IMG/VR virus record: IMGVR_UViG_3300042402_002687
Location: 7,826 to 71,825 of that record
Direction: 5' to 3' (one strand)
From: a virus
Length of the DNA: 64,000 nucleotides
Part shown: one piece after another, positions 4,884 through 63,245 of the stretch
How the letters are laid out: each line of letters opens with the position of its first letter
How positions within the stretch are numbered: the stretch's first letter is position 1
Translations under genes and position numbers: made by a program
Notes under the pieces: generated by a model
What the model saw: the letters and a program-made list of their open reading frames with translations, nothing else
Database searches by the model: none
Told to the model about the DNA's origin: nothing

Positions 4884-5112
4884 TTTTTGCCTCTTTCCAT
4901 GTGAGGTTTAAATATTCAAACTCAGTTATACCACCATATACGCCATAAAACTCTCCACTATTCCAAACAGATATAAAACATTCTGTTCTTACAGGGCATT
5001 TTTTGCATATAGATACGGCTCTATCTATGTCTTCTTTTTTATAAGAAAACCAAATATTGCTTTCAGGGTGGTCAACGCAAAGTGCTTTACTTGACCAATT
5101 ACTTGGCATCAT
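4819..5112 (-). CDS. whiB: WhiB-family Fe-S transcription factor
   Basis: W-x4-LC...WF...CKKCPVRTEC...GVYGG, the four-Cys plus G[VI]xGG WhiB signature. Confidence 0.9.
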   Translation of the reverse strand: MMPSNWSSKALCVDHPESNIWFSYKKEDIDRAVSICKKCPVRTECFISVWNSGEFYGVYGGITEFEYLNLTWKEAKNEKQNNRSKTDRVLKTILQGF

Positions 5113-14821: not shown

Positions 14822-15219
14822 TATGCTTCCTCAACGCTTAGACTTACTGAGTAATAATCACAACCAGTAGAAATATCCCTTCTTATTAAATCCTCTGAAT
14901 AATCCTCAATATAAACATATATCAACTCAGCCGGTCTTGCAGGGTCAAGTTTTATTGACATCGGTATCTTTGATCTTGTTGTCAAAGCTAAATCTTTAAT
15001 ATAATCTCTTGCCTTACGATTATCAATTGTATGGGAGGCTAGAGAGGGTAGCCATTCCCATTTGAAAGAAAATTTTCTCTTAGATGCTTTTATATATCTT
15101 TTTCGTACACCCTCGTCTAATTCAACATCTGATGCATTCAGGACTATTGAATCATTAATCTTGCGACCCTGCTCCGTCAACTCTTGTCCGTTAAGTGATA
15201 AAAAACTTATTACTGTCAT
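14821..15219 (-). CDS. Distal tail (Dit-like) protein
   Basis: Immediately downstream of the tape measure gene; paralog of the next gene. Confidence 0.6.
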   Translation of the reverse strand: MTVISFLSLNGQELTEQGRKINDSIVLNASDVELDEGVRKRYIKASKRKFSFKWEWLPSLASHTIDNRKARDYIKDLALTTRSKIPMSIKLDPARPAELIYVYIEDYSEDLIRRDISTGCDYYSVSLSVEEA

Positions 15220-18200
15220 TACAATCCTCTATTAATACCATTATAGGATTTTACAACTCTAGATTCAAGTCCAGCCTGTTTTTGATTAGCTGGTACAACC
15301 TTAACATTATATTCCTTCATCATTGTGTTGAACCATTCCGTTTCCCCAATAAAGTTGTCAACATAGAAGTTATAGTTGTGATTAGATTCAGAGGTTGAAA
15401 TCTGTTGTGATGAACCAGAGTTTGCAATCTTTGAATAATTAGCCATTGGAATATTGAGGGAAGGAACTTTTGGTGCATAGATTCCCTTATTCATTTGGTT
15501 AAGCATGTCCAATCCGTACTTATCAACAGCCTTCTTTCTGATTACAAATTCTCCACCATGAAGTGTTGCAGGGATTCCCATATTCATAGGACCAAATGTT
15601 GGACCCCCTTCTCCGTACATCATCATTCCACCCATACCGTATTTCATCTTTCCACCATTTGCATAGGGAATTGAGCCACCCTTAAATGCTGAAATCACTT
15701 GAGTGTATTTAATATATTGTGTAGAGTCCTTATATTTGCCATTGTATTCCCCTTCACTGACGCTAAAGAAGGCACCACCACCTTTTCTTGGTCTTACGAA
15801 ATACAGTGTCTTGGAACCATCACCAGCGCCTGCTGCTGTTTCTTTTGCATCAGCAATTGCCTTCTTCATAGCAGCAATGCCTCCAGCTCCCGCTTCTGCA
15901 ATCGCTTTAGAAAGAGCATCCTTTTGAATCTTTGCAAGTTCGTCATTGATTCCGGTTACAAGTTTTGCAGCAGCAGCAGCAACGCTTGCTTCTTTGCTCT
16001 TTGCCTCTGCAACCATCTTTGCAGCAGCATCTGTAATTGCTTGCGTAAATATTGAGGATGTTGTTTCAGGACCAGTTCCTGTTGTCTTTCCCTTAACATA
16101 TGCATTTACAGCGTCAAGACCTGTTCCATAAGAAGTTTGAATTGGACCACCAACTGCAAATGCTGTTGAAACACTTGAACCAATTCCACCGAGCATCCCG
16201 CTTGTAATTCCAAGAATTGAATTAGGATCAGACACTCCAGTTGCAAGACCAAACTTTGTTGCAGCAGTTGTTCTTAGCGATTCCAATCCTGTTGAGAAGA
16301 ATCCTGCTTGTGCAGTAATTGGATCCATTCCTGCTTGAATTTTTGCAGGAAGAGCTGTGAACAGTTCAGTAAACTTCGTTTGGATTCCAGTACTGGTAAG
16401 ACCTGCCTCAGTAAGCATCTTCCCAACTTGGTCTTTGAATTGCTCTTCTGTAAATGTTCCGTTCTCAAGTAGTTTTTCAGAATACTTTTCAAAGTCCTTT
16501 ATAGCCTGATCAAACTGCTTTGAGGCGGCTTCTCTTTGTGCCTTGATGATTTCAATTGCGTTATTGCGGTTGATTGATTGAAGTTCTCTTTGTCTTCCGG
16601 AATCTAAATCTGTAAGTTGCTCACTAAAGTCTTGGCTGTCCTTGAGTTCCTGAAGGTCAAGACTTCTTGCGTCATCAATTCTTCCTTCATAAATTGCAAG
16701 AGATCTATCTTTACGATTATTTTGCCTACGCAATTCGTTTTCACGAATCATTTTTCTTCTATTTGTTTCGTAAGCCTCTGTTGCAGTTAAAGCTTGCTCT
16801 GCCTCAGCAAGAGCATTGATTGCTTCTATTTGATCATCGAATACTTTGAGGGAAGCATCTTTCTGAGCGGTTAATTGCTCAGTTAATTCATCCTTAATCT
16901 TATTAACAGCCTCACCAAGTTTTCCAGATACAGCATCGAGAGCACTGTTGTTAAACTCGATTGTTGCCTGAATCTTTGCATCCTTAACTGCTGCTAAGGC
17001 ATCCTTAAGTGCCTCACCAGCTGCCTTGGCGGTTTCAGGGTTTTTGAATGCTTGCTCAAGCATATTCTTAACTGAGCTAAACAACCCCTTACCAGCACCT
17101 TCTGGGAGAAGATCTTTTGTTATAGCTGATAATTCTTTACCAAATTTCTTTTTTGAGTAATTTTTAAGAAAGTTAAATGGTGCATCCAGCATATCGCTAC
17201 GACTTCCAATTTGTCTCTTGGTGGCATCAATTATGCCGTCTATACCGTCTGATACACCATCGTATGCTGTATCAATAGCGCCAAGCATGCCATCAAACCA
17301 GTTAATCTGAGTACCTGATATATCTTTTCCAAAATCCTTAATTCCCTTTGCAACGCCCTTGAGGAAACCCATCCCTGGGATTCTTGAAATTAGTCCAGCA
17401 AGATTACCAAACCATTCAATAACTTTTCCAAGGGCTGTTGTAATACCTTTAGGAATCAACAAAATACCTTTAAGTATTAATTTGATAACTATAAAGATAC
17501 CTTTAGCAGTCAATCTCATTGCCTCAAGCATTAATTGTGGAATTATTTCCACAATATTATAAAGAAGTTGAAATGCCCATTTGAAAATTTGTATAAAAAG
17601 ATCCGTGAGTAACATTTTTATCATTGTCCCAATGGCTGTCGTTAGTTGCCCAATGCCTGCTTTTAGTTTCTTTTTAGCAGCTTCCATTTGTTTATCGGCA
17701 ACTTCTTTGTTGTAATCCTTGTCATCCTGAGTAGCAGGGCGACCTGCAGAAGCCGAAGTTGCTTTCCCTGTTGCTTCCACCCGCTTTTTGTTCTTGTTGG
17801 CAGCTGCATCAAATTTGGCTCCAATAACATCAAATATTCCACCAAAAACCGCCATAAACCCTCGGTACACACTTATGACAACAGCCAAGAATCTTCTAAA
17901 TGCTGGGGCTACTTTTGTTTCAACAAGAACTTTAACTTTAGTTAAAGTAGTATTTAACCAGCCAGAGAAACTTTCAAGTTTACTTCTCGCTTTATCTGTG
18001 CCCGATACTGCTGTTGAAGTGCCTCCAATAAGAACACCAACAAAATCTTCAAGAGGCTTAAGGAGTTCTTTGAATATATCTTTGATTTTCTTCCAAGATT
18101 CTTTGAAATTCTTAAGAGTGTCTCCAGATTTTGAACCCCAAGTCTTTTGGGTTTTGCTTAGTAAAGCAATTGATCCTGTTACTCCTGCAATTATCGCAAC

Positions 18201-21200
18201 AGCGGGTTTACCAACATAAGGAATTGCTGATAGACCTCTGAGCAAACCTTCAACAAGATTACCGCCTATCATTCCAGCCGTACCCATGTTCATTGTTGCC
18301 ATGTTTATACCTTGGCTTAGCCCCATGTTCAGTTGGTTGCTCAATCCTCCACCAGCACCTCTGGCACCGGATTTAATACCACCACCGAGTTTTGCCATCA
18401 TTGATTTTCTAATTTCTCCAAACATCCTTGTTCCATCATTCTTCAATGCGGTTAAGAAGCCTCTCCAACCTGTCCCTGCATTTTTCGCTTCGGAACCAGT
18501 CTGCTTCAAATATTTAAGGAAATCAAAAGTTCCCTTAGCGGCACCTACTGCTGCCTTCCCAATATTCCACATTGTAATTCCAAATGGCAATATTTTTAAT
18601 ACAGCATATGCAAAATGCGCGTGTACCTTTACAAGAACTTCAATAAGTTTCGCAGCAGTCTTATATGTCTTTTGAAGTGTAGTAGGAACTGGAATTGGCG
18701 CACCTGTTGGGGTTGGGTACAAAGGTCCACCCCCGCCCGCTCCGCCCGCTGGCGGAGTTACTGGTGGCTTTGCTCCACCACCTGTTGAGCCTCCACCTGT
18801 TTGCGGAGTTGCTGGAATAACTGGAGGAGTTGTGTTTTGAACAACAGTTTGCAATTTCTTGATTTGCTCACTAATTGTGTCATATATATCTTGGATGTTA
18901 GAACCCATAATCCTAGTCCAATTTTGTATTTCACTAGGATCCACCATAATTTTTTCAAGAGCTAATTGTAAAGAAAGAAGTTCATCTTCTGTTATTGTAG
19001 ATATTTTATTAATTAATAATTGAAGTTCATCTTCAATATTTGCATAATTTTTAACTTGAGGGAAGCTGCTAAGTTCTTGATTAATATAATCTATGCTCTC
19101 AGCAACCGTTCTTGCAAGAGTCGCAGATGGCGCAGGCGTATTATTGACAACTGGAAGAATTGCATCATAAGCATCGTCTGCCATTTCAGTTACACTTTCA
19201 ATAATTAAATTCTCAATATGTTCAAACATTGTTTCAAAAGGCAACTTGGTTGCTGCAGACAATTGATCTCGAATATCTGTTGGCATACCTTGAAGGTGGT
19301 TTAAAAGATCCACCAGTTCGTCATAAGGCATATTTACTGCTTCAATAATTAATTGAGCAATATTGGCAAGATACTCTGAAATGTCATTTGATACTTGAGT
19401 TATTTTTTCCTCAATAACCGGAACTTCAAGCATTGGTATTTGACCACTTGTTGCTTTAGTTACGGCAGTGTTAAACATATTTAAATCATTAACAAAATCA
19501 TCGGTAATTTTCTTAGAAACATCGTTAAGTTTTTCAGCCGCTTGCTTAACCTTATCTTCTGCTTGCGCCTTTGGTTTTGGCATGATTGGGAGAGGAACAA
19601 ATCCAGCTTGAAGAGTCACATAGTCTGCTGATTCAACAATGTTGTTAAAATGTTCTTTAATTATTCTCGTTGAATCTTCTAGATACCTTGCTGCTTTTCT
19701 TGACGCAACCTCCACCTGTCGACCTCTATCGTTCTCCCTCTTGGTGCCCTTAAGTAAATATCCAGCTATCAATTGCAATTCTTCTTCAGTTGCTCTTTCA
19801 AATAAATCCATTGCAAAACCGACTTCTTTTATTTCTTTTACAAGAGCTACAATTAATGGTTTTAATTGAGTTTGCCTATCCAAACCTGGACCAAATAGAC
19901 CTGAGCGAGCTGGCGTTTGAGATTGACTTGAACTTTGAGATTGAGTTCCACCAGTTGGTTTCTTTGTTCTTTTAGCAGCTTCTATTAATCTTTCTTTTGT
20001 CAACTCAATTGCATCGTATACATCGGAATTGGCAACAGTGTTTGCAAATAAAGCAAGATCTTTAAACATTTTAACAAACTCATCGTTTTTTGCAATTTTT
20101 GTAAAATCTTTATTAATAAGGTTGTCACGCATTTTTTCATACGCAACTTTTGGCTCGCTCAATGCTTGAGATAATGTTAGACCAAGAGTTGACAATGCTT
20201 TCTCAAGAAGAACCATTTGCTCTTTCATATCTGCCATTGGAGCAAGTGCAACACCTTTAAGATTTTCTTTAGAAAGGATTAAAGTATCAACATACCCCTC
20301 AACGGCCCGAGCTAACTCTTCACCAACCAAACCTAAATTCTTAAACATTTTTGTCGCAAGGTCTTCAACCACTGTACCAATCAATGGGTCGGGACCAGCA
20401 GCGGCACTAAGCGACCTTGGCTGTTGTTTCAATGATGAAAGAGGTACGAACGGAATTGCACCAAATTGATCAGGAACTAAACTTCTAACTATATTTTCTG
20501 ATGTAAGTGCGTTTGTAAGCAATTTTTCCTGTAAAGCCTTAACCATCTTTGCTGCCGACATTAGAGCAGAAACTGCTGCTTCAGCAGGAGGTGTTGCAAA
20601 ATCACGATCATAGCCAGATGCTTCCCATTGCTGTTCTGCTATATCATAAGCTCTCTGTATGGAGGCTTTGATTTGATTACCTGTACTAAGAATAGATTGT
20701 TCTTCCCTAGATCTTAGTTCTGAAGGTATTTTATAGATTGGCTCTAATTGTTTTTCAAAACCACTAACAATAGTCAGAGCTATTCTTCTTTTCTCTTCTT
20801 TATATTGATTAATTATTGATTGAAGTTGTGCAATTTCAGATTGAAGTCGAGACTGCTCTGCTGGGTCTTCTGCACTCATAAGTGCCTTTGTTGCTGTTAA
20901 AAGCGATTTCCTTGTTTCAGAAAGCCCTTGGGAAATAACCTCTGGTCTGGTTGTCAAGTATGGATTAGGAGCTTTTCTTTTGTACAGCTCTTCTTTTGAT
21001 AATGTAGAAATATCAAGTCTTCCAGTTTTAGAATTTTTTGTTCTATCAATTCTATTTCTTATATTTTCAATTGTTTCTTTTTGTATTGTATCGCTTGCCG
21101 TATATAATCTGTCAATCTCCCTTTTCTTTTCTGCAAGTTTATTTATTAATCTTTTTATTTCTTTTTCAATTTTAATTGAAGTGTCATCATTTACATCTCC

Positions 21201-24200
21201 ACCACCGGTAAGATGTTCTCTTCTTTGCCTTTCCAAATCAGCAATAGCATCGTCTACGGCTGGTTTTAGGTTTAGAAGATACTCATCAGAAAGTCTCATG
21301 TATTCAAGATGATCAAGTAAACTCATTCTTCTTGCCGCTTCGAAATTTGTCATTTCTCCATTAATTTGTTCTTCGACACTTATTGATCTTTTAAGCTCTG
21401 CAATAAGACCTACATCTTCTGCTTTAGGCTTTGGTTTTTCTGTCTTTTGACCAAGACCAGATGCCTCGTATAGAGCTTCTTGAAATTTAGTAGTAACTTT
21501 ATTGTCAAACCCAAGACTCGACAAACCAATTTTCCCAACTCCTGTTTGCATTAAATATGCAATTTGATCAATTTTTTTAATATTTCCAATTAGGGCAAGA
21601 TCTGGATTGAAACTCTTTGCGTTCTTATCTGTAGAAGGTTTTACTGTCTTTAAAAGATCTAAAACAAATTGTATAGCAGAATTTTGATCTGTAAACACAA
21701 ACTCAACTTCATCGGCAACCCTTGCCATTTCCTGAAATACTGGAGGAAGTGCTATGTCAAATTGTTTTGCCATATTTCTAATTACATCACCTGTAAGACG
21801 CATTCTCTTTTGACCTGGAGTAGTCCTACTCTCCCCAATCTCCGAAAGATCCTTGTGATATGTTTTAAACCCAAATTCTTTGAGTTCTCTCAAAGTTGAT
21901 TTCTTGAATGTCTCTAAAGCATCATCGATTGAGACGCTTGCATTTTTAGCAATTTGAACCATATTGTTGCTAACTTCACGCATAAACTCTTCTGGTTCAA
22001 GATTAACTACGCCACGAACAATTTTCTTACTTGCATCTTCAAAAATTGATTCAGAAAATGCAGTATTACCAATTTGATCAAGTTGTGTTAATGCTGTTTT
22101 AAAATTCTCTATTTCAGCGTATAACTGGTCAATACCCAATTCATATTGCGTAATTTGCTCAGCAATTTGTCCATATTTTAGCAATGGTGTAGGGGTGGTA
22201 GCCAAGGCTTTGGTTTTACCAACTATGGCTGTCTTGGCTTGCCTAATTGATTTTCTTCTTTCTTCAATACTGTCACTTATTCTTTGAGCAGCTACTATAA
22301 CCATATCTATTGATGTAAAAGAATCAGACATCAAAGCACTATCTACGGCTTGGCCTCTAATTATTTTTCTTATTAATTCAACTTCTTTTTGATGTTTTGC
22401 ATTATATTCATTTAATTCTTGAATATTTCTTTGATTAAGTTGGGTAAGTTCTTCAAATCCAGATTCTGTTGAGTATGTAGCAACTTCTTTCAACAGTCCA
22501 CTTTGAATTCCTCTCCTCAAGATGGCCATCAAGCCAGAGAATTTTTTCATTTCAACACTTAGCTCAGCAAGAACATTTATCCTTTGTCTTTCAAGAGATT
22601 TCTTTAGTTCAATCTCTGCTTGAAGTATTGTTTCAAATTCTTGTCTTGCATTCTCAAGCATTGTCTCATCAGAAACAATTCTTGGCGGAGTTGCTGAGTC
22701 TTGCATAGAAGTAAGTTGTTCCTTAAGCCCTACCAATTCAGCCGATTTATCTCCATCAATAAGTTTCCTCTGAGCATTGATAGCATCCCTCTTTGAAGCA
22801 TTAACAGCTAGTTTTTCTTTAATCTCAGCAATTTCCTTGCTTATACCCTCAGTGGCTCGCTTCTTAGCCTCTGGGGAATTCATGGATTTCAAGGACTGTA
22901 GCATTTCAGAAAGAGTTATCTCTTTTCTGCGAAGCTCGTTAAATAAAGTATTGTCGGATTTCTGTTCTTCAGAAGAATACTCACGGAGCAGTTTATCCAA
23001 GATATCTCTTGCATTATTTAATTCATTCACTTTATCAGCAATGGCTTGAGCATTTTCTTGAGCATACTTTTGAGCTTTCTCAAGATTGGTAGCGTAATCA
23101 GTTTTCTGTTTAGAAACATTTTCTTCAATTATTTCAACTTTATTTACTCTCAGTCCTTTTATTACTTGTGATTGTGTAAAAATATCATCTTTCAAACCAC
23201 TTGCAACATCTTCCATTTTTTTTGAACTTTCTCTCAACGATTTTGCTCTGTCAAGCACAGATGGCATTAATTGACCTATATTGACAGATGCAGCTGACCC
23301 AATGTTTACTACAAGATTCTCTAATCTTTTCTTTTCTAATTCCAAATTTTTTACGGTATCTTGCATCTGTTTTAGTGTTGTTGTTATTTCATTACCACTG
23401 CTATCTACAGATACAACTTCTTCTAAACCAGACTCTTTAAGTTTTTTTATTTTTTCTTTTGTTGCTTGTAATGAACTTGTTACCCAGTCAAGTGCGTTAT
23501 TCTTTTCATCAGCATCTGCATCATACTCTTCCATAAGTTCCAAAAATTCAAGATGCAACGCACTATTTGCCTCATCAGCTTTTTCTTGTTTATCTTCAAT
23601 GTTTAAAAATGAAGACGCTCTTCCTATTGCAGTACCACCAAGACTGGTCTTGATGTTTGCGACTCTTCCTGTAACACTTATAACTCTTTGAGATAAGCCA
23701 GCAACATTCTCACCTTCAATATTGATAGTATCTGAGACAGAGGTTGACAGTTTAATCATAGCTGTTTGCAAATTAACTACTTGACTAAGTAGGAGTTCTA
23801 TTTGACTCTTATTTTCACCAGTTGCATCCTTGCTTTGTATTTGTAAAGCTCCAATAAGAACTGTAAAGAATTCTCTCAAATCTTTTGAAACACCGAGTTT
23901 TAGATTATTAATTCTATTTTCAAGATCTATTATTGCCGATGCCGAATCATCGTTATTTTGAGCCTTATCAAGAGCAATACGAATTTTATTTATGCTATCC
24001 GACAATGCTGCTGGTGTGATATCACCCATTGATGGTATTTGAGCAATAATTGCACTTATGTTAAAACTTCCTGGTTTGAATGATATACCTTTTGTTGTTT
24101 TAATTAAATCAACAGTATTTTTTATAGCAGTATCTTTTATTAAAGTAAGTGAGTCAACTTCTGCTTCTCTAAACAGATCTCTTCTTTGTTCTAATGTTTT

Positions 24201-27200
24201 TAAGATTTCTGAAATAAAATTATCGTATGTCTCTATTACACCGCCAGCACTTAAATCTTTTTGATTAATTTGAGTAAACTTACTTGGGTCAAATCCTTCA
24301 CCTAACAAGTCTGCAGAAGCAATTGCATCTTGAGTTATTGATGTGATTCTTTCCTGAACTTTCTCTATGGAGCTTAGATCAATGGCTTTTATAACCGTAG
24401 TGTTCTTAATACCTTGAGCAGTCTTTTTGCCAGTATTAGTTATAACTTCTTCAAGTTTGTCCTCTTCAGCATTTTGAACAATCTCTGAAGAGTTGTTGGA
24501 AGCATTTTCAGTCTTCTTAGAACCACCACTATTTCCTGCACGACCACCACTTTTCTTTACAGCATCTTCTGCGTCTTGACCCTTCTCGTCAACAACATCA
24601 GCAAGTGTTTCATCAGTAGCTAAAGCGACATCATCCGTCACTTGAGATACAGCATCGTCTACGGCTGGCGAGCCTCTTGTTGCATTCGCCTTTCCACCCT
24701 TTGGTTGCATTTTTTCTTTAATTTCATCAAGGGTTATTTTCATCTTATTTTCATCTTTTTCAAGAGCGTTCATGATATTTTGACTTATGTTGGTAGGTGC
24801 CCTTTTACCAACTTTCAATCCAAGAAGATCTGCAATAATTTTACGCTGGTATGCCTTAAGACCTAGAAGACCTTCAAGCGTAGGATTCATTGCTACATCC
24901 AAAATCTTTTGTGCGTTTTCTTCCATTTTTTTAATAGATTTTGTAAGTTCATCTGCTGGGTTTTTTGCTGGCTTTATTGGCTTATCTGGCTCGGCAACAA
25001 TGCCACCTATTTCAGCAATAATTACATTAGATTGGTCTGTTAAATCTTCAAGTTTTTGTTGCTGCTCTTCAATTACATCATCAATAACAATAGATGCATT
25101 GGAAGCGCTTGCGGCAGCATTTCCTGCAGCATTGCTTGGTGCAGGTTGAGAAGGCTTTGACCCCTGTGAAGGTTGTGGTGCTGGAGTAGGTTGTGGAGCA
25201 GGGGCTGGTGCTGGCTGTGGTGTAGGAGCGGGAGCAGGTTGTGGTGTTGGCTGAGGTGTGACTGGTGGCATTGTTACAGTATTTTGTAAATCAATTAATC
25301 TTTGAGTAAATAAGTCTTCTATATTCTGAAGCAAATCAACAAGACGGCTTTGAAGATTGTTTGGATCCCAATCTTGCGTTATTGTTTGAAGATCCACAGC
25401 AAGATCAATAGCTTGGTCTGCAATATCTTCTGTAAATTTATCAATACCATTAACTAATTTTTCAAGTTCCATAGCCATCTTGTCAAGATCGGCTTGTACA
25501 CCCTGATCTAGTTCGTCACGAATATCATCAATTATTTGTTGATAATTTTGTGTAGCAGATACTCTCTTAGAAGGCTTACCCCCCGCTCCTCCGGGACCTG
25601 TTCCTCCACCAGAACCTCCGCCAGAACCTCCGCCAGAGCCTCCGCCAGAGCCTCCGCCAGAGCCTCCGGAACCTGTTCCCTTTGGTGGATTAACTCGATT
25701 TGTACTAAACCCATTCATTCTTAATAATTCAAGGAATGCTTCAGCAATTCCTGTTCCAATAGCTGCTGCTTCTGTTTTTATATTAGTAATAATATTTCCG
25801 AATTCGTCATATGTTTCTTTCCTATAACCTTCAGAAACTGATAAATCTCCTGCACTATCAAACCCAGCCTTAACGGATTCTTTATAACCTGGCATAAGAC
25901 CTTCAAAGTTTGCTTGTCGTTTATCAACACCAAGTGATTTGAATATCTTATCTGCCGTTCTCTTCTGGAAGAATCCACCAGTAGACAAAGCCATTGCTTT
26001 TTCAAGTTGCTGGAATTCTTTTAGAGTAGCTTTCAAAAAGAATTTATTACCAATCTGAGCTAAACCTCCACGCATTTTGAATAATGCGGCATTGGAACGA
26101 ATCATGGATTCTGAAACTTCAATTGCCTGTGTTTTTAATTTACCAAATGCATTCATTCCACGAATTGAAGCAAATGCAGATCTCAGTTGAAATACCGCAC
26201 CCATAATTTTCATTACCGGACCAATAGCAGCAAATAGTGCCAACCCAATTGCAAAAATCATCTTTCCAACTGGTCCAATTTTTTTAAGAATATTTGATAT
26301 AAATTCAAGAATAGGGACTAGCGCTTTTAATACTTCACTAACAATTGGAACAATTTGTCTTCCGATTCCTTTAATAATTTCTCTTGCTCTGTTATACCGT
26401 GTCTCTGCAGTTTCAAGAGAGGCCGCAACTTCTTGCAGGAATTTTCTTTGAGCCTCAGAACCTTCAGTACCTCCCTGAGCAGCAACAATCAATGCACGAC
26501 CTGATTCTGTTGATATTTGAGCTACAACATCCGCCCCCGCCTGCGCTTGCTCTCTGAGGTAGTTGGCAAATTCGGATCTACCCGCAGTGAACGCAGCAGC
26601 AACCTTTTCATCCTTGCTTGATGCCAATTCAACGGCCGCTGATAAGTCTTCAAACTTCTTAACTTGGAATTTACTATATTCGTCTCCAAGACCAGCGGTA
26701 TTCTTTCTTATATACTCTGAAAATTTATCAGCAATTTCTCTTTCTATAGAACCTTGTCTATCAAGAGCATCTTGGAACTGAGCAAGGTTCTGAATTGCGA
26801 CTTCCATTCTTGGACCCTGACGCACTCCAAAAAGATTTGAGAACATTTCCATGGTTCCCTGCTCACCCTTCGATTCTTTAAGGTAGTTATAAGAGTCTGC
26901 AAGTTTTTGAATTGTTTCAATACCGACACCTGCTTCGATTGTAAAATCTTTATTATTCTGTCTAAAACCATCAATTAATTGACTGTTTTCTTTTGTTAAG
27001 TCAACAAGTCTTTGTAGAGATACTTTAACCGAGTTGGCAGATGCTCCAACTTGGAAACCAGCAGCAACCATTGGAACCATCAATGAAGCAGCTTCACCCA
27101 TTGAAAGACCAAAAGAGGTTGCCGATGCTGTCAATTCAGGGAAGCCTTTTGCCAAGTTATTTAGAGACAAAGATGTTTTGTTTTCAAGTTGGTTAAACAT

Positions 27201-28214
27201 TGCTAATTGAGCAGTTACTTCCTTCAACGCTTCATCTGCAGTAACATCTTTGCCCAAGTCTCTATTCACCCTCATCACTGTTTGATAAATTGATTGAATG
27301 AATGCTTGTGATTCTCCAATATCAACATTACCCAACTTCTCAGTTGCTGCAGTTAAATCAACCAAGCTCGAAAGAGCACCTATTGAGCTAATTCCTAATT
27401 CAGCATAATCGCCTACAAGACCTTGTACGAGTTCCCTGGAAATACCGTATTTGAAACTTATATCGTCAAGAGTTTTGGTAAGTTTCTCCATTGCTCCATT
27501 AACGGTATACAATTGCTGCACTTGACCATCAATAACCATTGAATAACTCTTGCCATCTTTTGCCAATGATGCCCCAGTAGTCCTGACAACTTCATCTATG
27601 GTCTTGTAAGAGTCTCCAATAAGTTTTGTTGTACGAACTGTTTGAACTTCCAATCTCTTGAATGTGCTAAATGCAGATCTTGCAAATGCGATTATTGGAG
27701 CGGATACTGAAAGAGATAACCTCGTTCCGGACATGCTGTACTTGTTGGAAAGATCTGTTAAAGAAGCCGCTTGATTCTTATAGCTTTGTGCAAGAGAATA
27801 CTTTTGCAACTCCTTCTGCATAGCAAGTTGGCTATTAAGAGAATTTACTAGAGATTGAGATGCCGCAACTTGTTGTCTTGTCGCAGCCGCGCTTGCCGTT
27901 GATATAGCAGTAAAGCTATTTATATCTCTTTGCAGTCTTTCAACAGTGGCTGAGACATGCTTAAAGTGGTTGGCAAGAACTTGCTGGTTCTTTGAAAGGT
28001 TTGAAGTTGCTCTTGCATATGCAGATGAGGAACTGGTACCACTTGACAAAGCCTTATTTAAGGAATCAACTCCACTTTTTGTGGACATTGATGTTCTATT
28101 TAAATCATTTGTAATTCTTAGAATGTATTGAACAGAGTCACCCATAGACTCAATAGCCGCTTTTAGGCTGTTGTCAATAATAGTATCAATTTGAACTCTG
28201 CCTGTACTTGTCAT
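15219..28214 (-). CDS. Tape measure protein (4331 aa)
   Basis: Follows tail chaperones; TMP-like N-terminal region (ASANSVKVSLQRL, LFGVRQG), helical Ala/Leu/Lys-rich body, hydrophobic segments, C-terminal LHGGEFVI motif. Confidence 0.92.
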   Translation of the reverse strand: MTSTGRVQIDTIIDNSLKAAIESMGDSVQYILRITNDLNRTSMSTKSGVDSLNKALSSGTSSSSAYARATSNLSKNQQVLANHFKHVSATVERLQRDINSFTAISTASAAATRQQVAASQSLVNSLNSQLAMQKELQKYSLAQSYKNQAASLTDLSNKYSMSGTRLSLSVSAPIIAFARSAFSTFKRLEVQTVRTTKLIGDSYKTIDEVVRTTGASLAKDGKSYSMVIDGQVQQLYTVNGAMEKLTKTLDDISFKYGISRELVQGLVGDYAELGISSIGALSSLVDLTAATEKLGNVDIGESQAFIQSIYQTVMRVNRDLGKDVTADEALKEVTAQLAMFNQLENKTSLSLNNLAKGFPELTASATSFGLSMGEAASLMVPMVAAGFQVGASANSVKVSLQRLVDLTKENSQLIDGFRQNNKDFTIEAGVGIETIQKLADSYNYLKESKGEQGTMEMFSNLFGVRQGPRMEVAIQNLAQFQDALDRQGSIEREIADKFSEYIRKNTAGLGDEYSKFQVKKFEDLSAAVELASSKDEKVAAAFTAGRSEFANYLREQAQAGADVVAQISTESGRALIVAAQGGTEGSEAQRKFLQEVAASLETAETRYNRAREIIKGIGRQIVPIVSEVLKALVPILEFISNILKKIGPVGKMIFAIGLALFAAIGPVMKIMGAVFQLRSAFASIRGMNAFGKLKTQAIEVSESMIRSNAALFKMRGGLAQIGNKFFLKATLKEFQQLEKAMALSTGGFFQKRTADKIFKSLGVDKRQANFEGLMPGYKESVKAGFDSAGDLSVSEGYRKETYDEFGNIITNIKTEAAAIGTGIAEAFLELLRMNGFSTNRVNPPKGTGSGGSGGGSGGGSGGGSGGGSGGGTGPGGAGGKPSKRVSATQNYQQIIDDIRDELDQGVQADLDKMAMELEKLVNGIDKFTEDIADQAIDLAVDLQTITQDWDPNNLQSRLVDLLQNIEDLFTQRLIDLQNTVTMPPVTPQPTPQPAPAPTPQPAPAPAPQPTPAPQPSQGSKPSQPAPSNAAGNAAASASNASIVIDDVIEEQQQKLEDLTDQSNVIIAEIGGIVAEPDKPIKPAKNPADELTKSIKKMEENAQKILDVAMNPTLEGLLGLKAYQRKIIADLLGLKVGKRAPTNISQNIMNALEKDENKMKITLDEIKEKMQPKGGKANATRGSPAVDDAVSQVTDDVALATDETLADVVDEKGQDAEDAVKKSGGRAGNSGGSKKTENASNNSSEIVQNAEEDKLEEVITNTGKKTAQGIKNTTVIKAIDLSSIEKVQERITSITQDAIASADLLGEGFDPSKFTQINQKDLSAGGVIETYDNFISEILKTLEQRRDLFREAEVDSLTLIKDTAIKNTVDLIKTTKGISFKPGSFNISAIIAQIPSMGDITPAALSDSINKIRIALDKAQNNDDSASAIIDLENRINNLKLGVSKDLREFFTVLIGALQIQSKDATGENKSQIELLLSQVVNLQTAMIKLSTSVSDTINIEGENVAGLSQRVISVTGRVANIKTSLGGTAIGRASSFLNIEDKQEKADEANSALHLEFLELMEEYDADADEKNNALDWVTSSLQATKEKIKKLKESGLEEVVSVDSSGNEITTTLKQMQDTVKNLELEKKRLENLVVNIGSAASVNIGQLMPSVLDRAKSLRESSKKMEDVASGLKDDIFTQSQVIKGLRVNKVEIIEENVSKQKTDYATNLEKAQKYAQENAQAIADKVNELNNARDILDKLLREYSSEEQKSDNTLFNELRRKEITLSEMLQSLKSMNSPEAKKRATEGISKEIAEIKEKLAVNASKRDAINAQRKLIDGDKSAELVGLKEQLTSMQDSATPPRIVSDETMLENARQEFETILQAEIELKKSLERQRINVLAELSVEMKKFSGLMAILRRGIQSGLLKEVATYSTESGFEELTQLNQRNIQELNEYNAKHQKEVELIRKIIRGQAVDSALMSDSFTSIDMVIVAAQRISDSIEERRKSIRQAKTAIVGKTKALATTPTPLLKYGQIAEQITQYELGIDQLYAEIENFKTALTQLDQIGNTAFSESIFEDASKKIVRGVVNLEPEEFMREVSNNMVQIAKNASVSIDDALETFKKSTLRELKEFGFKTYHKDLSEIGESRTTPGQKRMRLTGDVIRNMAKQFDIALPPVFQEMARVADEVEFVFTDQNSAIQFVLDLLKTVKPSTDKNAKSFNPDLALIGNIKKIDQIAYLMQTGVGKIGLSSLGFDNKVTTKFQEALYEASGLGQKTEKPKPKAEDVGLIAELKRSISVEEQINGEMTNFEAARRMSLLDHLEYMRLSDEYLLNLKPAVDDAIADLERQRREHLTGGGDVNDDTSIKIEKEIKRLINKLAEKKREIDRLYTASDTIQKETIENIRNRIDRTKNSKTGRLDISTLSKEELYKRKAPNPYLTTRPEVISQGLSETRKSLLTATKALMSAEDPAEQSRLQSEIAQLQSIINQYKEEKRRIALTIVSGFEKQLEPIYKIPSELRSREEQSILSTGNQIKASIQRAYDIAEQQWEASGYDRDFATPPAEAAVSALMSAAKMVKALQEKLLTNALTSENIVRSLVPDQFGAIPFVPLSSLKQQPRSLSAAAGPDPLIGTVVEDLATKMFKNLGLVGEELARAVEGYVDTLILSKENLKGVALAPMADMKEQMVLLEKALSTLGLTLSQALSEPKVAYEKMRDNLINKDFTKIAKNDEFVKMFKDLALFANTVANSDVYDAIELTKERLIEAAKRTKKPTGGTQSQSSSQSQTPARSGLFGPGLDRQTQLKPLIVALVKEIKEVGFAMDLFERATEEELQLIAGYLLKGTKRENDRGRQVEVASRKAARYLEDSTRIIKEHFNNIVESADYVTLQAGFVPLPIMPKPKAQAEDKVKQAAEKLNDVSKKITDDFVNDLNMFNTAVTKATSGQIPMLEVPVIEEKITQVSNDISEYLANIAQLIIEAVNMPYDELVDLLNHLQGMPTDIRDQLSAATKLPFETMFEHIENLIIESVTEMADDAYDAILPVVNNTPAPSATLARTVAESIDYINQELSSFPQVKNYANIEDELQLLINKISTITEDELLSLQLALEKIMVDPSEIQNWTRIMGSNIQDIYDTISEQIKKLQTVVQNTTPPVIPATPQTGGGSTGGGAKPPVTPPAGGAGGGGPLYPTPTGAPIPVPTTLQKTYKTAAKLIEVLVKVHAHFAYAVLKILPFGITMWNIGKAAVGAAKGTFDFLKYLKQTGSEAKNAGTGWRGFLTALKNDGTRMFGEIRKSMMAKLGGGIKSGARGAGGGLSNQLNMGLSQGINMATMNMGTAGMIGGNLVEGLLRGLSAIPYVGKPAVAIIAGVTGSIALLSKTQKTWGSKSGDTLKNFKESWKKIKDIFKELLKPLEDFVGVLIGGTSTAVSGTDKARSKLESFSGWLNTTLTKVKVLVETKVAPAFRRFLAVVISVYRGFMAVFGGIFDVIGAKFDAAANKNKKRVEATGKATSASAGRPATQDDKDYNKEVADKQMEAAKKKLKAGIGQLTTAIGTMIKMLLTDLFIQIFKWAFQLLYNIVEIIPQLMLEAMRLTAKGIFIVIKLILKGILLIPKGITTALGKVIEWFGNLAGLISRIPGMGFLKGVAKGIKDFGKDISGTQINWFDGMLGAIDTAYDGVSDGIDGIIDATKRQIGSRSDMLDAPFNFLKNYSKKKFGKELSAITKDLLPEGAGKGLFSSVKNMLEQAFKNPETAKAAGEALKDALAAVKDAKIQATIEFNNSALDAVSGKLGEAVNKIKDELTEQLTAQKDASLKVFDDQIEAINALAEAEQALTATEAYETNRRKMIRENELRRQNNRKDRSLAIYEGRIDDARSLDLQELKDSQDFSEQLTDLDSGRQRELQSINRNNAIEIIKAQREAASKQFDQAIKDFEKYSEKLLENGTFTEEQFKDQVGKMLTEAGLTSTGIQTKFTELFTALPAKIQAGMDPITAQAGFFSTGLESLRTTAATKFGLATGVSDPNSILGITSGMLGGIGSSVSTAFAVGGPIQTSYGTGLDAVNAYVKGKTTGTGPETTSSIFTQAITDAAAKMVAEAKSKEASVAAAAAKLVTGINDELAKIQKDALSKAIAEAGAGGIAAMKKAIADAKETAAGAGDGSKTLYFVRPRKGGGAFFSVSEGEYNGKYKDSTQYIKYTQVISAFKGGSIPYANGGKMKYGMGGMMMYGEGGPTFGPMNMGIPATLHGGEFVIRKKAVDKYGLDMLNQMNKGIYAPKVPSLNIPMANYSKIANSGSSQQISTSESNHNYNFYVDNFIGETEWFNTMMKEYNVKVVPANQKQAGLESRVVKSYNGINRGL
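25603..25668. repeat. 12-bp tandem repeat (cctccgccagar, ~5 copies) encoding a GGGS linker in the TMP
   Basis: Directly visible tandem copies. Confidence 0.9.
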
Positions 28215-58872: not shown

Positions 58873-58947
58873 ATGGAACTCGTTCTTAGTGCAATAGCTA
58901 TTGGTTGTTTTGCTGCTATTATTTTAATTTGGATTAGCGGTCCATGA
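58873..58947 (+). CDS. 24-aa single-TM micropeptide
   Basis: AAGGAG RBS; MELVLSAIAIGCFAAIILIWISGP*; ATGA overlap with next gene. Confidence 0.6.
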   Translation: MELVLSAIAIGCFAAIILIWISGP

Positions 58948-59549
58948 CAACTATTGTTGCAATACAAGGTGATGGATATGCTGTTATCGGTACAGATTCA
59001 CGAATCTCATCTTTTGACGAAACCGGAATGGCTTATCAAATAACAACTCTTGGAACAGGGACATCAAAGATTGCATCAGTTGGCCGTTACTTGCTTGGGG
59101 CAGCGGGAGATGTAAGAGCAATTAACATCCTTCATCACGCATTTAGTCCTCCAGTGCCATCTTTCAAGACCTCTGGCGCAAACCTAGATCAGTTCATTAC
59201 ACAAAGGTTTATTCCGGCACTAAGGGAATGCTTTGAGCAGACTGGTTACGCAATGCCCGACAATGATGAGAAGACTCACATTGCAGAGCAGGCTTCTACA
59301 ATTCTTGTTGTGATAAATGGTGTGATATATATAATTGATGGGGACTACTCTTGGACTTCTGACCGCACTGGGGTTTATGCAATTGGTACTGGTTCCTCAT
59401 ACGCCCTTGGTGCCATACAAGCCATTGCCGGAGGGAAACAATTGCAAATACCTAAAGCAAAACTTGCTATTAATAAAGCACTTTCGATAACATCCAAATT
59501 TGATCCATACACAGGTTCTCCATTCCATATTTATGTGCAGGAGCAATGA
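58944..59549 (+). CDS. HslV/proteasome beta-subunit-like Ntn protease
   Basis: M-TTIVAI...GTDSRIS...SKI...GAAG...AIGTGSSYALGA...DPYTG. Confidence 0.85.
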   Translation: MTTIVAIQGDGYAVIGTDSRISSFDETGMAYQITTLGTGTSKIASVGRYLLGAAGDVRAINILHHAFSPPVPSFKTSGANLDQFITQRFIPALRECFEQTGYAMPDNDEKTHIAEQASTILVVINGVIYIIDGDYSWTSDRTGVYAIGTGSSYALGAIQAIAGGKQLQIPKAKLAINKALSITSKFDPYTGSPFHIYVQEQ

Positions 59550-59722
59550 TGGCTGTCTACGATTACAAATGCATAAATGGTCACATGTATACAGAAATTA
59601 GATCAATTAAAGAAGACCAAAGAAGAGTTGAGTGCGAATACTGTGGAGAATTTCTTAAACAAGTTTACACACCACCCCTTATGCAATTAAAGGGAACTGG
59701 CTTTTATCGGAATAACCGATGA
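59549..59722 (+). CDS. FmdB-family zinc-ribbon protein (57 aa; not in ORF track)
   Basis: MAVYDYKCINGH...CEYCG...LKGTGFY; GGAG RBS. Confidence 0.8.
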   Translation: MAVYDYKCINGHMYTEIRSIKEDQRRVECEYCGEFLKQVYTPPLMQLKGTGFYRNNR

Positions 59723-59745
59723 TGTATAATATTTATGACACCCTT

Positions 59746-59841
59746 TGTGTCTGTTGCGCAAGTGCAGGCTACCTTGGGACCGTTATAGTACACATGAAAG
59801 CCCCGGAACTATCCCTACGCAAGTAAATAGCCGGGGTTTTC
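59746..59841 (+). ncRNA. Candidate structured RNA (three-way junction plus terminator-like hairpin, two GCAA tetraloops)
   Basis: Manual pairing; G-U pairs favour the + strand; TATAAT at 59725-59730. Confidence 0.5.
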
Positions 59842-59860
59842 GAACTAAGAAAAGGAAAAT

Positions 59861-61045
59861 ATGACAAAATTAATATCAGAGATTGATATGCCAACAACTA
59901 AAACAAATATATTGGCATCGGACTTAACAAAATATCAACAAGTTGAAGAAAATTTAAAAATTGGTAAAGAGTCTTGGATTGCATCTTTTGGGTTTGGCTA
60001 TGTTTTATACCATCAAGAGGATATACGCAAAATTTTACTAGATCAAAGATGGCATAACGCTTTAGTATTTTATGCTGCGGTTAATAAAACTGACGAACCT
60101 GAAAAAGACGAGTATTATAAAAAAAGAAGAACTAATATCTTAATAAATTTAGAAGGAGATGACCACGCAAGACTAAGAAGTTTAGTCGCTCCATCTTTTA
60201 CTCCCAAGAATGTTGCTTACTTAAAACCATTTATTAACTGGATTACAAACAAAATGATTGACGACATCCTTGTAAACAAAAAATTTGATATACAAAAAGA
60301 TTTATTCCACAACCTTCCGGTTTATGTCTTATGCCAATTAACAGGGCTTCCGGCGAAAGATATTGAAATCTTTAATGTATGGGTAGAGAAGGCTTTCAGA
60401 ACTTTTGGTCTAAATGACCGTGAAGAAATTCAGAGAATTAGAAAAGAACAGCAAATAATTGATGACTATGTTTTGAATTTAATTGAAGAAAGAAGGAGAA
60501 ACCCTCAAAATGATCTTATAACCCAATTAGTTCAAGCGGAGGAGTCCGGAGACATATTGACCAACGAAGAGGTCGTTATGCTTATTCAAGTTATCATGTC
60601 AAGCGGAATTGATACGACCAGATGTCAGCTTGGCCTATGTTTATCTTATTTTGCAAACAATCCAGATAAATGGGAAGAAGCAATCGGTAGCGAAGAATCT
60701 ATGAACAGACTTCTAGAAGAGGCTATGGCTTTTGATGGAACTATTCGTAATGTAGGTAGGTTTGCTTCAGAGGATATTGTCTATAAAGACATACTGTTCC
60801 CAAAGGGCACATTTGTTGTTCCTGCTTTAAACATCTCTAATATAAATGAGACTGATAAGAAACCACTTACTTTTGGACTAGGGATTCATCACTGTCTAGG
60901 TACAGCGTTAGCTCGCCTTGAGATTCAAGAAGTTTTCTCAATTCTCGCCAAGAGAATTCCTTCCTTCCGTGTTGATAGCATTGAGTATAAAGAGACAACA
61001 GATGCCATCTGGGGTCTTAAGTCTCTTGTAATAGAAGTTGAGTAA
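59861..61045 (+). CDS. Cytochrome P450 (atypical)
   Basis: DHARLR..VAPSFTPK, I-helix SGIDTT, heme motif FGLGIHHCLG..LARLE. Confidence 0.93.
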   Translation: MTKLISEIDMPTTKTNILASDLTKYQQVEENLKIGKESWIASFGFGYVLYHQEDIRKILLDQRWHNALVFYAAVNKTDEPEKDEYYKKRRTNILINLEGDDHARLRSLVAPSFTPKNVAYLKPFINWITNKMIDDILVNKKFDIQKDLFHNLPVYVLCQLTGLPAKDIEIFNVWVEKAFRTFGLNDREEIQRIRKEQQIIDDYVLNLIEERRRNPQNDLITQLVQAEESGDILTNEEVVMLIQVIMSSGIDTTRCQLGLCLSYFANNPDKWEEAIGSEESMNRLLEEAMAFDGTIRNVGRFASEDIVYKDILFPKGTFVVPALNISNINETDKKPLTFGLGIHHCLGTALARLEIQEVFSILAKRIPSFRVDSIEYKETTDAIWGLKSLVIEVE

Positions 61046-61274
61046 AGTGAGACTATCAATAATAGATAATGCAGAATACAAAATACTATTATATCAACAC
61101 GAAGAACTAAAGAAGGAAAATAAACTCCTCAAAGAAGAACTTGCCTATTTTGATATTGGTAAAATTTTGCTTGGTGCAAACCCTGTGGTTGGTAAAATCG
61201 ATGCAGAGTCATCAAACAAGGTGTATGATTCGATTAAGGAAAGATACAGATTAGCCCAAATTTTGGGCATGTAG
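61038..61274 (+). CDS. Hypothetical coiled-coil protein
   Basis: Overlaps the P450 stop. Confidence 0.55.
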   Translation: MSKVRLSIIDNAEYKILLYQHEELKKENKLLKEELAYFDIGKILLGANPVVGKIDAESSNKVYDSIKERYRLAQILGM

Positions 61275-61299
61275 AATAGTTGGAAAGAAAGAAAAAATA

Positions 61300-62016
61300 A
61301 TGAAAATTGAAGGTTCTGTAGTATTAGTTACAGGTGCAAATCGTGGATTAGGCGCAGAGTATGTTCGTCAATTATTAGATAGAGGGGCATCAAAAGTTTA
61401 TGCCAGTGCTCGTAATATTGAATCAGTAACAAACACTGGGGCTGTACCGATCTCTCTTGATGTAACAAGTGCGAGTGATATTGCTGCTGCTGTGGAAGCG
61501 TGTGGTGATGTCACTATGTTAATCAATAATGCTGGTATCGTTCGGGGTAACTCTATTTTGTCTGACAATTCTCTAGAGCATGCAAGAGCTGAATTTGAAA
61601 CCAATGTATGGGGTCCGTTTAATATGTCGAGAGGTTTTGCACCAGTATTGGCAAAAAACGGAGGAGGAGTTGTTGTTAATGTTCTTTCAGCAGCAGCATG
61701 GTTTAGTGTTAAGGAGATAGCGACATATGCCATGTCCAAGTCTGCAGCTTGGTCCTTAACCAACGGACTTCGCTTAGAGCTTGCACAATACAATACTCTT
61801 GTTGTTGCAGTGCATGCTGGCTTTATTGATACAGATATGGCAGCTAATGTTAAGGCGGATAAAGTTTCTACTTTCCAAGTGGTGGAGAGAACACTTGATG
61901 CAGTAGAAGCAGGCATGCCAGAAGTTCTTGCAGATGATGGATGTATTTTTGTAAAAAACAATCTTCCAAACCATATTGAAACCTTTTACCCTCTAATTGC
62001 TGGATTACATCTTTAA
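61300..62016 (+). CDS. Short-chain dehydrogenase/reductase
   Basis: TGANRGLG, NNAG, catalytic S and YAMSK, GFIDTDM. Confidence 0.95.
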   Translation: MKIEGSVVLVTGANRGLGAEYVRQLLDRGASKVYASARNIESVTNTGAVPISLDVTSASDIAAAVEACGDVTMLINNAGIVRGNSILSDNSLEHARAEFETNVWGPFNMSRGFAPVLAKNGGGVVVNVLSAAAWFSVKEIATYAMSKSAAWSLTNGLRLELAQYNTLVVAVHAGFIDTDMAANVKADKVSTFQVVERTLDAVEAGMPEVLADDGCIFVKNNLPNHIETFYPLIAGLHL

Positions 62017-62017
62017 T

Positions 62018-62710
62018 ATGCTAAACACAAGTGTTCATGAGCTATTTCCGACTCTTTTGACGGAAACAAAATATGACATGAATCAAAAAATTTTAGATAT
62101 TATCTACGATAATTGGAAAACTCACTACACAAATGGTTATTCAAATGAAGGGACTGGAAATCTAGATATTCATACTGATGAATCTTTTAGGGATCTTTAT
62201 ATTTTTCTAAATAAATGTGTCATAGAGTATCTTAAAGTTATGGGTATATCTGGTGAAAATTTTAATATTAATTTTGTAAAGTCTTGGTTCAATTCACTAG
62301 AGAATATACCTACACCTATGCACTGTCATGCTGATGCTCACATATCAGTTGTTTATTATGCACAAACTCCACCAAATACAGATCAAATTATTCGTTTCAA
62401 CGCTCTTAATGAGTCAAGAGAATTATTTCATGGCGCAGCTCGAAACAATTCATTTGAGATGAATAAATTTAATTCAGCTGTATACGCTGTGGCACCAACA
62501 GAAGGAACCGCATTGGTATTTCCGGCTCGTGTTTTCCACGATACCATTGGGGCAAATAAAGGATTTCACAAAGAAGAACCCCCTGTAAATACAGAGAATG
62601 ACTTAAGAAGGAAAAGGATATGTATTGCTTCTGATGTTATATTAACATATAAAGAAAAGTCTAATAAATCTTTAGGACTTCAGCCAGTTTCGCAGTGGAG
62701 AAGGTTTTAA
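62018..62710 (+). CDS. Putative 2OG-Fe(II) oxygenase
   Basis: SWFN, HCH...ISVVYY, EGTALVFPARVFH, RICIA. Confidence 0.85.
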   Translation: MLNTSVHELFPTLLTETKYDMNQKILDIIYDNWKTHYTNGYSNEGTGNLDIHTDESFRDLYIFLNKCVIEYLKVMGISGENFNINFVKSWFNSLENIPTPMHCHADAHISVVYYAQTPPNTDQIIRFNALNESRELFHGAARNNSFEMNKFNSAVYAVAPTEGTALVFPARVFHDTIGANKGFHKEEPPVNTENDLRRKRICIASDVILTYKEKSNKSLGLQPVSQWRRF

Positions 62711-62711
62711 C

Positions 62712-63245
62712 TTGATGATACAAATATTTGAAGACTTTATATCCAAGGAGCTGGAGGATACCCTCCTTAATTTTGTATCCAGCAATGCATTCCCATATCG
62801 TTTCCAAGATATTCATAATGGGGCACCTGTCTCATCCAAACAACTCACCCATCATATCTTTATGGCCGGTGAAGAGAGACAATCCCCTCACTACCCGATT
62901 ATTTCTCCGTTACTAGAATCTATCCAAGATTTATACGGAGACATACTTTTATATAGGGCGAAGGTTAATGTCACAATGCCAAACCCCTCTGGCAACCCCC
63001 AGACACCGCACACTGATTTGAAATTGGAAGACGGTGGTTTGATTCCACATCTTGTTTGTTTATACTATGTAAACGATTCAGATGGTCCTACCTACTTCTA
63101 TGATGACGACCTAAATGTTATAGAAGAGATACACCCCCGAAAAGGAACGGCGGTTATATTTGATGGGGATATACTTCATGCAGGTAGTAATCCAATTACA
63201 ACCCCTTTCCGGTTTGCGATAAATATAAATTTCCTTCCGTCATAA
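62712..63245 (+). CDS. 2OG-Fe(II) oxygenase
   Basis: PHTD, LYYVNDSDGPT, FDGDILHAG, RFAININ. Confidence 0.88.
   Translation: MMIQIFEDFISKELEDTLLNFVSSNAFPYRFQDIHNGAPVSSKQLTHHIFMAGEERQSPHYPIISPLLESIQDLYGDILLYRAKVNVTMPNPSGNPQTPHTDLKLEDGGLIPHLVCLYYVNDSDGPTYFYDDDLNVIEEIHPRKGTAVIFDGDILHAGSNPITTPFRFAININFLPS

Follow-up and report, generated by a model that had tools for sequence, protein, structure and literature searches.

The 64,000-nt stretch of viral DNA analyzed here (the window) holds, in the 138-nt gap between a zinc-ribbon gene and a P450 gene (59861-61045), an element which from about 59737 to 59841 on the plus strand probably specifies a free-standing phage small RNA (sRNA) of about 105 nt, acting in trans through pairing with 23S rRNA. 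It contains a segment almost perfectly antisense to helices 69 and 70 (H69 and H70) of 23S rRNA (Table 1). This match was absent from the original prediction, which read the gap as a structured RNA controlling read-through into P450. A 16-nt core of the segment (59773-59788, antisense of 23S 1914-1929) recurs in other phages, and the RNA of the window would be one family in a wider set of phage RNAs sharing this anti-H69 core. It is quite possible, and we put it forward as a tentative extension, that an undescribed class of sRNAs, which pair with H69 and inhibit or re-program the ribosome at its central bridge, is encoded by phages infecting hosts as far apart as freshwater actinobacteria and Vibrio, among others.

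Table 1. Coordinates of the element, of its parts and of related features (window positions unless another record is named).
Feature	Position	Strand	Remark
FmdB-family zinc-ribbon gene (58 aa)	59546-59722	+	constant 5' neighbor; stop codon abuts TGTATAAT
Promoter-like box TGTATAAT	59723-59730	+	-10 hexamer TATAAT at 59725-59730
5' hairpin H1, GACAC / GUGUC, variable loop	59737-59751	+	fits 29/29 relatives
Hairpin H2, GNRA loop GCAA at 59758-59761	59752-59766	+	5 pairs standard in 29/29 relatives
Anti-23S segment	59768-59789	+	reverse complement of 23S rRNA 1913-1934
Intrinsic terminator, GC-rich extended hairpin	59796-59841	+	from the fold; U run 59837-59840
Vibrio phage PWH3a-P1 element	L070:1270-1770; NC_020863.1 ~80.6-81.1 kb	- of locus	other Vibrio phages: L071-L075
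WhiB-family gene	~4915-5097; G000:C1:12740-12922	-	family match

When the E. coli rrlH gene is used as the 23S reference, 21 of the 22 nucleotides of the segment are reverse-complementary to 23S rRNA (E 5e-6), and the sole mismatch is a G opposite U1926, which makes a G·U wobble. The part of 23S rRNA covered is the 3' half of the H69 loop, the H69 3' strand and the start of H70. No other part of the window matches 23S rRNA as well as the segment does (36.2 bits, E 0.002). A 14-mer at E 0.58 comes second, the rest of the window stays at or below 28.2 bits, and no further significant match to 23S, 16S or 5S rRNA was found in the window, nor in the RNA itself. The segment occurs once in the window, with 0 occurrences expected in shuffles. 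The target stretch is almost wholly highly conserved in the Rfam LSU consensus, and the target 16-mer is present exactly once in four out of five bacterial genomes from different phyla. Duplexes were predicted at -72 to -90 kcal/mol, and those of shuffles at about -45 to -53 kcal/mol; these values ignore intramolecular and rRNA folding and are no evidence of binding.

Relatives of the element were collected by pattern scans of viral and metagenome contigs, which gave 29 distinct same-family sequences with full flanks. A locus cut by a contig end (L052) was left out of the set, and scan matches lacking the other features of the family, for example L047 and GC-rich matches, were discarded as chance. 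In all 29 relatives the element comes after the stop codon of the zinc-ribbon gene, and each of the five family records has it in one copy. It has a conserved region of about 55 nt, and the anti-23S seed is its most conserved block. In 17 relatives the RNA core is 82-100% identical to that of the window, whereas 17 comparisons of the adjacent zinc-ribbon coding sequence gave 61-83% nucleotide and 52-84% amino acid identity; the core is thus under stronger (purifying) constraint than its protein-coding neighbor. It should be noted that the zinc-ribbon protein itself scores just above the cut-off for TIGR02605 (31.6 bits against 31.3) and under the cut-off for Pfam Zn_ribbon_8 (26.1 bits).

The complementarity is longer in several of the relatives. 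Those from L006 and L014/L018 match 23S 1907-1934 at 27 of 28 positions, which is all of H69, and in L020, L023, L024 and L037 it is 25 of 27 with one bulge. The substitutions seen within the segment all keep a Watson-Crick or a wobble pair: either G or A faces U1926, the C facing G1922 has become U in 11 sequences, and the A facing U1931 has become G in 2. As there are three kinds of substitution only, the argument from preserved wobbles is a weak one; by a count made by hand about 10 of the 22 positions would tolerate a transition. One-nucleotide bulges or deletions are present in several variants (the L020 group, L040 and L064). Beyond the core, and upstream of the segment in the RNA, its reverse complement contains stretches resembling the CUGCAC and GCGUAAC of 23S rRNA after a gap of 27 nt, the place that would have held H70-3'/H71. 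This likeness suggests that the RNA descends from an antisense rDNA fragment and gained its hairpins later.

As far as can be judged from its sequence, the element carries the marks of an sRNA gene: a promoter-like box of its own, a Rho-independent terminator and a short, apparently non-coding unit in between. The TATAAT to which the original prediction drew attention is preceded by TG and is unchanged in all 29 relatives, and transcription would start at about 59737. The GC-rich second stem of the prediction is also real and is the terminator hairpin of Table 1. In the relatives it has been swapped for at least four unrelated hairpin sequences, each with a T run, and the core stays. A scan for consensus promoters and terminators listed neither the TGTATAAT box nor the terminator, because the former has no -35 match and the loop of the latter is beyond the limits of the scan. 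The plus strand folds with -40.3 kcal/mol (z -2.93), a value reached by none of 200 shuffles, against z -0.31 for the minus strand, where 66 of 200 shuffles were as good. Two G·U pairs of H2 are invariant in the relatives and would be mismatches if read on the minus strand; they form on the plus strand only and are therefore evidence for that strand. A search for sequencing runs with this DNA gave 23 DNA runs, from freshwater or lakes, and one RNA run, which over 58900-61100 has a single contig, 60425-60665, inside the P450 gene and nothing over the element. As a minor observation, the 5' arm of the terminator at 59798-59806 (AAGCCCCGG) is a sense copy of 23S 1889-1897, just upstream of H69; with E 1.1 this is perhaps chance.

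The internal fold given in Table 1 is a tentative one. The five core pairs of H1 (59737-41/59747-51) are standard in all relatives; its closing pair is G-C in 18, G-U in 10 and A-U in 1, and its loop varies in length and sequence. In H2 a G·U pair is replaced by A-U in 6 sequences, and the GCAA loop is GCGA in L006, L023 and L037. Covariation for this model is not significant (167 of 500 shuffles do at least as well), and the 29 relatives vary too little for such a test. H1 competes with a longer form of H2 which is preferred in thermodynamic folds. On average, the nucleotides of the 16-nt core have a predicted probability of being unpaired of 0.49 in the window and of 0.54-0.64 in five relatives. 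In L006 and L020 the 3' part of the core, complementary to the H69 loop, comes out unpaired in the prediction (digit 9 on a scale of 0-9).

The three-way junction of the original prediction could not be upheld. Its GCAA-capped P2 and its P3 of 4 bp are compatible with all 29 relatives, but P1 (59746-50/59790-94) is not conserved: it pairs in 63.6% of the cells of the alignment, and 11 of the 29 sequences cannot form three of its pairs, so the junction fails. P2 and P3 hardly vary and are thus neither supported nor refuted by covariation; for the proposed structure as a whole 184 of 500 shuffles reach the observed value with the 29 relatives. A pseudoknot between GGGA and UCCC had been suggested, and here UCCC turns out to belong to the terminator type of the window only, the relatives carrying other terminators. 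Nor is the 17-codon reading frame overlapping the first domain kept. The frame is lost in L014/L018, where the loop is 2 nt shorter, and its ATG has become GTG in L009 and ACG in L020, L023, L024, L037, L040 and L042.

That the original prediction did not recognize the family of the RNA agrees with a search against the covariance models of Rfam 15, which gave 0 matches at the gathering score in the window; the best weak matches had E=3 and 7.8. The former is a snoR1 match of 14.6 bits (gathering score 49) that leans on an AUGAUG upstream of the -10 box, which is AUAGUG in relatives. ARAGORN found no tRNA in the gap, and an Rfam search of 12 related or analogous loci returned tRNAs as the sole matches.

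The 16-nt core was found in at least 157 IMG/VR loci, at least 120 with A and 37 with G at the variable position. A control 16-mer from the sarcin-ricin loop, an equally conserved part of 23S rRNA, was found in 3. With the motif masked, the 122 unique contexts among the matches listed fall into 28 flank clusters, the largest having 44, 20 (the family of the window), 15, 6 and 5 (Vibrio) members, and 17 being singletons. Four singletons (L081, L085, L087 and L194) look by eye like chance matches in coding-like sequence. Of 118 unique contexts among the matches listed, 76 have a terminator-like hairpin with a T run downstream of the motif on the anti-23S strand, at a median distance of 42 nt; on the other strand 3 of the 118 do. 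For window relatives and other clusters taken together, again among the matches listed, an unbroken run of Watson-Crick or wobble pairs with 23S rRNA would span 16-17 nt in 54 of 118 contexts, 18-25 nt in another 54 and 28-31 nt in the other 10.

Several clusters carry a second rRNA-antisense motif, UUCGCUAC or a near-identical sequence, in the loop of the terminator hairpin (L146, L192, L208, L219, L142, L184, L106, L125, L167, L188, L216, L160, L202 and L090, counting the variants with U). It is opposite 23S ~1931-1938 and sits downstream of the 16-nt core, an order which is permuted relative to a continuous antisense strand. A contaminating or captured 23S gene was considered as the source of the matches and rejected: a search of the phage record with the LSU rRNA model gave no match, and rDNA flanks surround 0 of the 120 A-type cores among the matches listed.

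Isolate phages were searched by blastn with 23S 1891-1956, which also returned records with a full 23S sequence. Five Vibrio phages have a 22/24 match to 23S 1907-1930 in an intergenic gap, and a sixth was found with the L006 RNA as query. In these six genomes (120-139 kb) an intergenic conserved element of about 120 nt opens with CCUUGGGACCGUUAUAGUUAUGGC, the antisense of 23S 1907-1930 apart from two wobbles. Its anti-23S strand runs in the same direction as the genes on either side, and tRNA genes follow the element in 10AMN and R16F. The sequence CCUUGGGACCGUUAUAGUUA, including the G opposite U1926, is common to the Vibrio phages and the family of the window. A later hairpin in the Vibrio phages has a stem that differs between the phages and a loop that keeps GUGUCGCUACC; the element as a whole is not notably structured (fold z = +1.66). 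Four other isolate records, Arcanobacterium phage TPWB06 and the Staphylococcus phages PG-2021_4, PG-2021_68 and vB_SpsS-DH5 (H39-H42, genomes of ~92 kb), match 23S 1927-1952 at 23 of 26 positions with E about 6, which may be chance or another rRNA-related element.

No isolate phage resembling the window was found by DNA search or by the P450 protein, and a search of isolate phages with the zinc-ribbon protein gave 2 weak matches. The family pattern hit 5 loci in bacterial genomes, none of them the element (one was a 23S gene with an insertion and four were chance), and these gave no clue to the host. In one locus from a Rhodothermus MAG (L065:6440-6560) the 23S gene deviates just 3' of ~1934, which looks like an intervening sequence or an intron at the known homing-site region.

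For the RNA of the window the following mechanism is proposed. The RNA would be transcribed from its own TGTATAAT box, or be cut from the 3' end of the mRNA for the zinc-ribbon protein, and would stop at the intrinsic terminator. Its working part would be the largely single-stranded stretch of 22 nt (28 nt in relatives) antisense to H69/H70. The part complementary to the exposed H69 loop could nucleate pairing with nascent 23S rRNA or with a free or immature 50S subunit, and the duplex would then spread into the H69 3' strand. H69 is among the most conserved and functionally central ribosomal helices; it forms the intersubunit bridge B2a and contacts tRNAs, release factors and the recycling factor. 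Because it forms this bridge, pairing would block late 50S maturation or the formation of 70S ribosomes; alternatively, the duplex might be a double-stranded substrate for RNase III. With either outcome the phage would act on the ribosome pool of the host. In the mature ribosome the H69 3' strand and H70 are paired and packed, so that invasion is perhaps limited to nascent or immature particles. Since a phage depends on working ribosomes, a benefit from global inhibition is not obvious. The bulges and deletions in several variants, the 54 of 118 listed contexts with 16-17 nt of complementarity and the lack of significant covariation in the helices of the RNA also weigh against the proposal. 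Candidate benefits are that new host ribosomes are shut down, that translation is timed, or that termination or recycling is altered.

The nearest rival to this mechanism keeps the RNA and drops the ribosome: it would be a real phage sRNA which arose from captured antisense rDNA, lost any ribosomal role and now serves as partner of the zinc-ribbon protein or of another RNA. The 23S likeness of its reverse complement beyond the core, with hairpins acquired on its own, is what such a history would leave behind, and the zinc-ribbon gene is strictly linked to the element in the family of the window. Among the matches listed, 31 of 124 contexts have an FmdB-like C-terminal tail (G.GFY) ending no more than 150 nt upstream, 20 of them from the family of the window and 11 from other flank families. 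In the remaining 93 of the 124 listed there is no zinc-ribbon gene directly upstream, and a wider link based on CxxC motifs was rejected as partly spurious, since in 6 contexts the CxxC is the C-terminus of ribonucleotide reductase. Ancestry alone also leaves unexplained that the same exact 16 nt are found in 28 flank clusters with unrelated scaffolds (among the matches listed) and that the variable positions preserve pairing. We consider such a loss of the ribosomal role unlikely, although it deserves to be kept in mind. A guide RNA, leading an effector protein such as a nuclease or modifying enzyme to 23S rRNA or to the rRNA genes, would account for the sharp borders of the 16-mer, which in the 54 of 118 listed contexts with 16-17 nt is all the complementarity there is, and for the hairpin that often directly follows the core as in guide-plus-scaffold layouts. 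The neighboring genes could be read in the same way: in the 44-member cluster the core RNA comes just after a gene for an HNH nuclease of ~100-125 aa in 28 contexts among the matches listed, and in one locus (L124:8993-10209, minus strand) it stands before a RuvC-like gene. This neighborhood may reflect a functional link, or nothing more than the usual order of genes in phages. Small HNH and RuvC genes are commonplace in phages, which counts against a guide, and no single protein family runs through the clusters; apart from zinc ribbons the upstream genes among the matches listed are small HNH nucleases (28/124), ribonucleotide reductase (6/124) and others. Targeting of DNA, moreover, needs no uniform antisense-to-rRNA orientation, and a guide function seems to us doubtful, more so than a partnership with the zinc-ribbon protein. 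Named relatives of the 44-member cluster were not found, the matches obtained lying outside the motif.

Two further readings dispense with a trans-acting RNA. At the level of DNA, the element could be an attachment site in the 23S gene, a target or decoy of a homing endonuclease, or an inert rDNA remnant. The target stretch lies in the well-known homing-site region of 23S rDNA, that of the I-CeuI site; in papers that contain the 16-mer, as far as their indexed text goes, it occurs as I-CeuI site or as 23S primer, and some families have 28-31 bp of contiguous likeness to 23S. An attachment site fits poorly with the finding that tyrosine and serine recombinases (PF00589, PF00239) are absent from all five family records, two of which are at least 96% complete, and the second motif, permuted and placed in a terminator loop, is unlike an attachment core. 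The absence of rDNA flanks noted above (0/120 among the matches listed) speaks against a remnant, and the strand bias of the terminators (76 versus 3 of 118 listed) together with the invariant TATAAT fits a transcript, so that a function as DNA only is very improbable. We give equally little credence to the cis-acting leader of the original prediction, i.e. a riboswitch, attenuator or ribozyme controlling read-through into P450. The non-coding RNA with its promoter-like box and terminator has stood up; the control of P450 has not. The element does precede P450 directly, shares its strand and ends with a terminator, and a P450 homologue is next in 12 of the 29 relatives. The other 17 have something else downstream (tRNA-Asn in 4, other genes or a cut contig in 13; in L014 a tRNA cut by the contig end). 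There is no conserved anti-terminator pairing, the strong terminators having been swapped wholesale, P1 is not conserved, Rfam gave no riboswitch or ribozyme match, and the conserved core is present in unrelated phages with other neighbors and no P450.

If the pairing with 23S rRNA is taken as the preferred reading, the element may be filed as a base-pairing sRNA with a new class of target; to our knowledge, mRNAs are the targets of the phage small RNAs reported to date. The c4 RNA of P1/P7, for example, pairs with ant mRNA according to a review (PMC12197685). Such trans-encoded sRNAs and the element appear alike in being short phage-encoded transcripts with a promoter, an exposed conserved seed and a Rho-independent terminator; they differ in that c4-type sRNAs target mRNA whereas the complementary partner of the element would be rRNA. 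The terms "rRNA", "23S" and "16S" are absent from that review, which appeared in 2025. In open-access papers and bioRxiv, nothing was found on phage RNAs complementary to 23S rRNA, and the 16 papers containing the 16-mer are, by title, rRNA, homing-endonuclease or cloning work and none is on phage RNA.

CopA/CopT of R1 and RNA I/RNA II of ColE1 are antisense control RNAs that start by loop contacts. A geometry of the CopA/CopT kind is found in the L006, L014, L020 and L039 groups and in the Vibrio phages, where CCGU-UAUAGUU-ACGG/AUGG makes an antisense H69 hairpin whose 7-nt loop is fully complementary to the H69 loop, as would suit a kissing start followed by duplex extension. The variant of the window is without the 3' arm of this hairpin. 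CopA/CopT and RNA I/RNA II are cis-encoded opposite their targets; here the target would be a host rRNA encoded elsewhere. The box C/D and H/ACA guides of archaea and eukaryotes are likewise small RNAs with 10-20 nt of rRNA complementarity, but box C/D (RUGAUGA, CUGA) or H/ACA boxes are absent within the putative transcript, a lone C-like box lying upstream of the -10 hexamer, and we know of no box C/D or H/ACA guide machinery in bacteria. Phage T4 has two small stable RNAs, C and D, in its tRNA cluster, with no known function. They resemble the present RNAs, by description only, as phage-encoded small RNAs beside tRNA genes, and we know of no rRNA complementarity in them.

H69 has already been explored as an antisense antibacterial target: a PNA against it (Kulik et al., 2017) inhibits growth of E. 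coli, as reported in a review (PMC7038079). The PNA and the element share the target helix, and the growth inhibition indicates that H69 can be reached; the PNA is man-made, short and added from outside, whereas the RNA of the element would be natural, structured and phage-encoded. The recurrence of the core suggests that phages may aim small RNAs at the ribosome itself, which if true would be a new route of host take-over. As at least 157 viral loci share the core on unrelated scaffolds, and six cultured Vibrio phages have it, the matter is directly testable at the bench. Should the pairing be confirmed, nature has already optimized antisense scaffolds against H69; should it be refuted, an exact rRNA-antisense 16-mer across unrelated phages would still need an explanation.

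The record from which the window is taken is a 71.8-kb IMG/VR virus, estimated to be 69% complete, with the portal, protease, DnaB helicase, exonuclease and ribonucleotide reductase genes of a tailed phage. Streptomyces phages of ~130 kb have portal proteins about 43% identical to its own. A WhiB gene is present in 5 of 5 related records, and among 14 control genomes it was found in Corynebacterium only. WhiB, the Streptomyces-like portal and the DNA runs from freshwater or lakes together make a freshwater actinobacterium the likely host. Some other features of the window may be mentioned. Just upstream of the zinc-ribbon gene a 201-aa protein (58944-59549, plus strand) weakly matches PF00227, the proteasome subunit family (E 8.4e-6, 26 bits). 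A single open reading frame of 4331 codons fills 15219-28214 on the minus strand. The genes downstream of the element (59861-63245, plus strand), namely P450, a 78-aa ORF, a short-chain dehydrogenase and two 2OG-Fe(II) oxygenases, are likely auxiliary metabolic genes.
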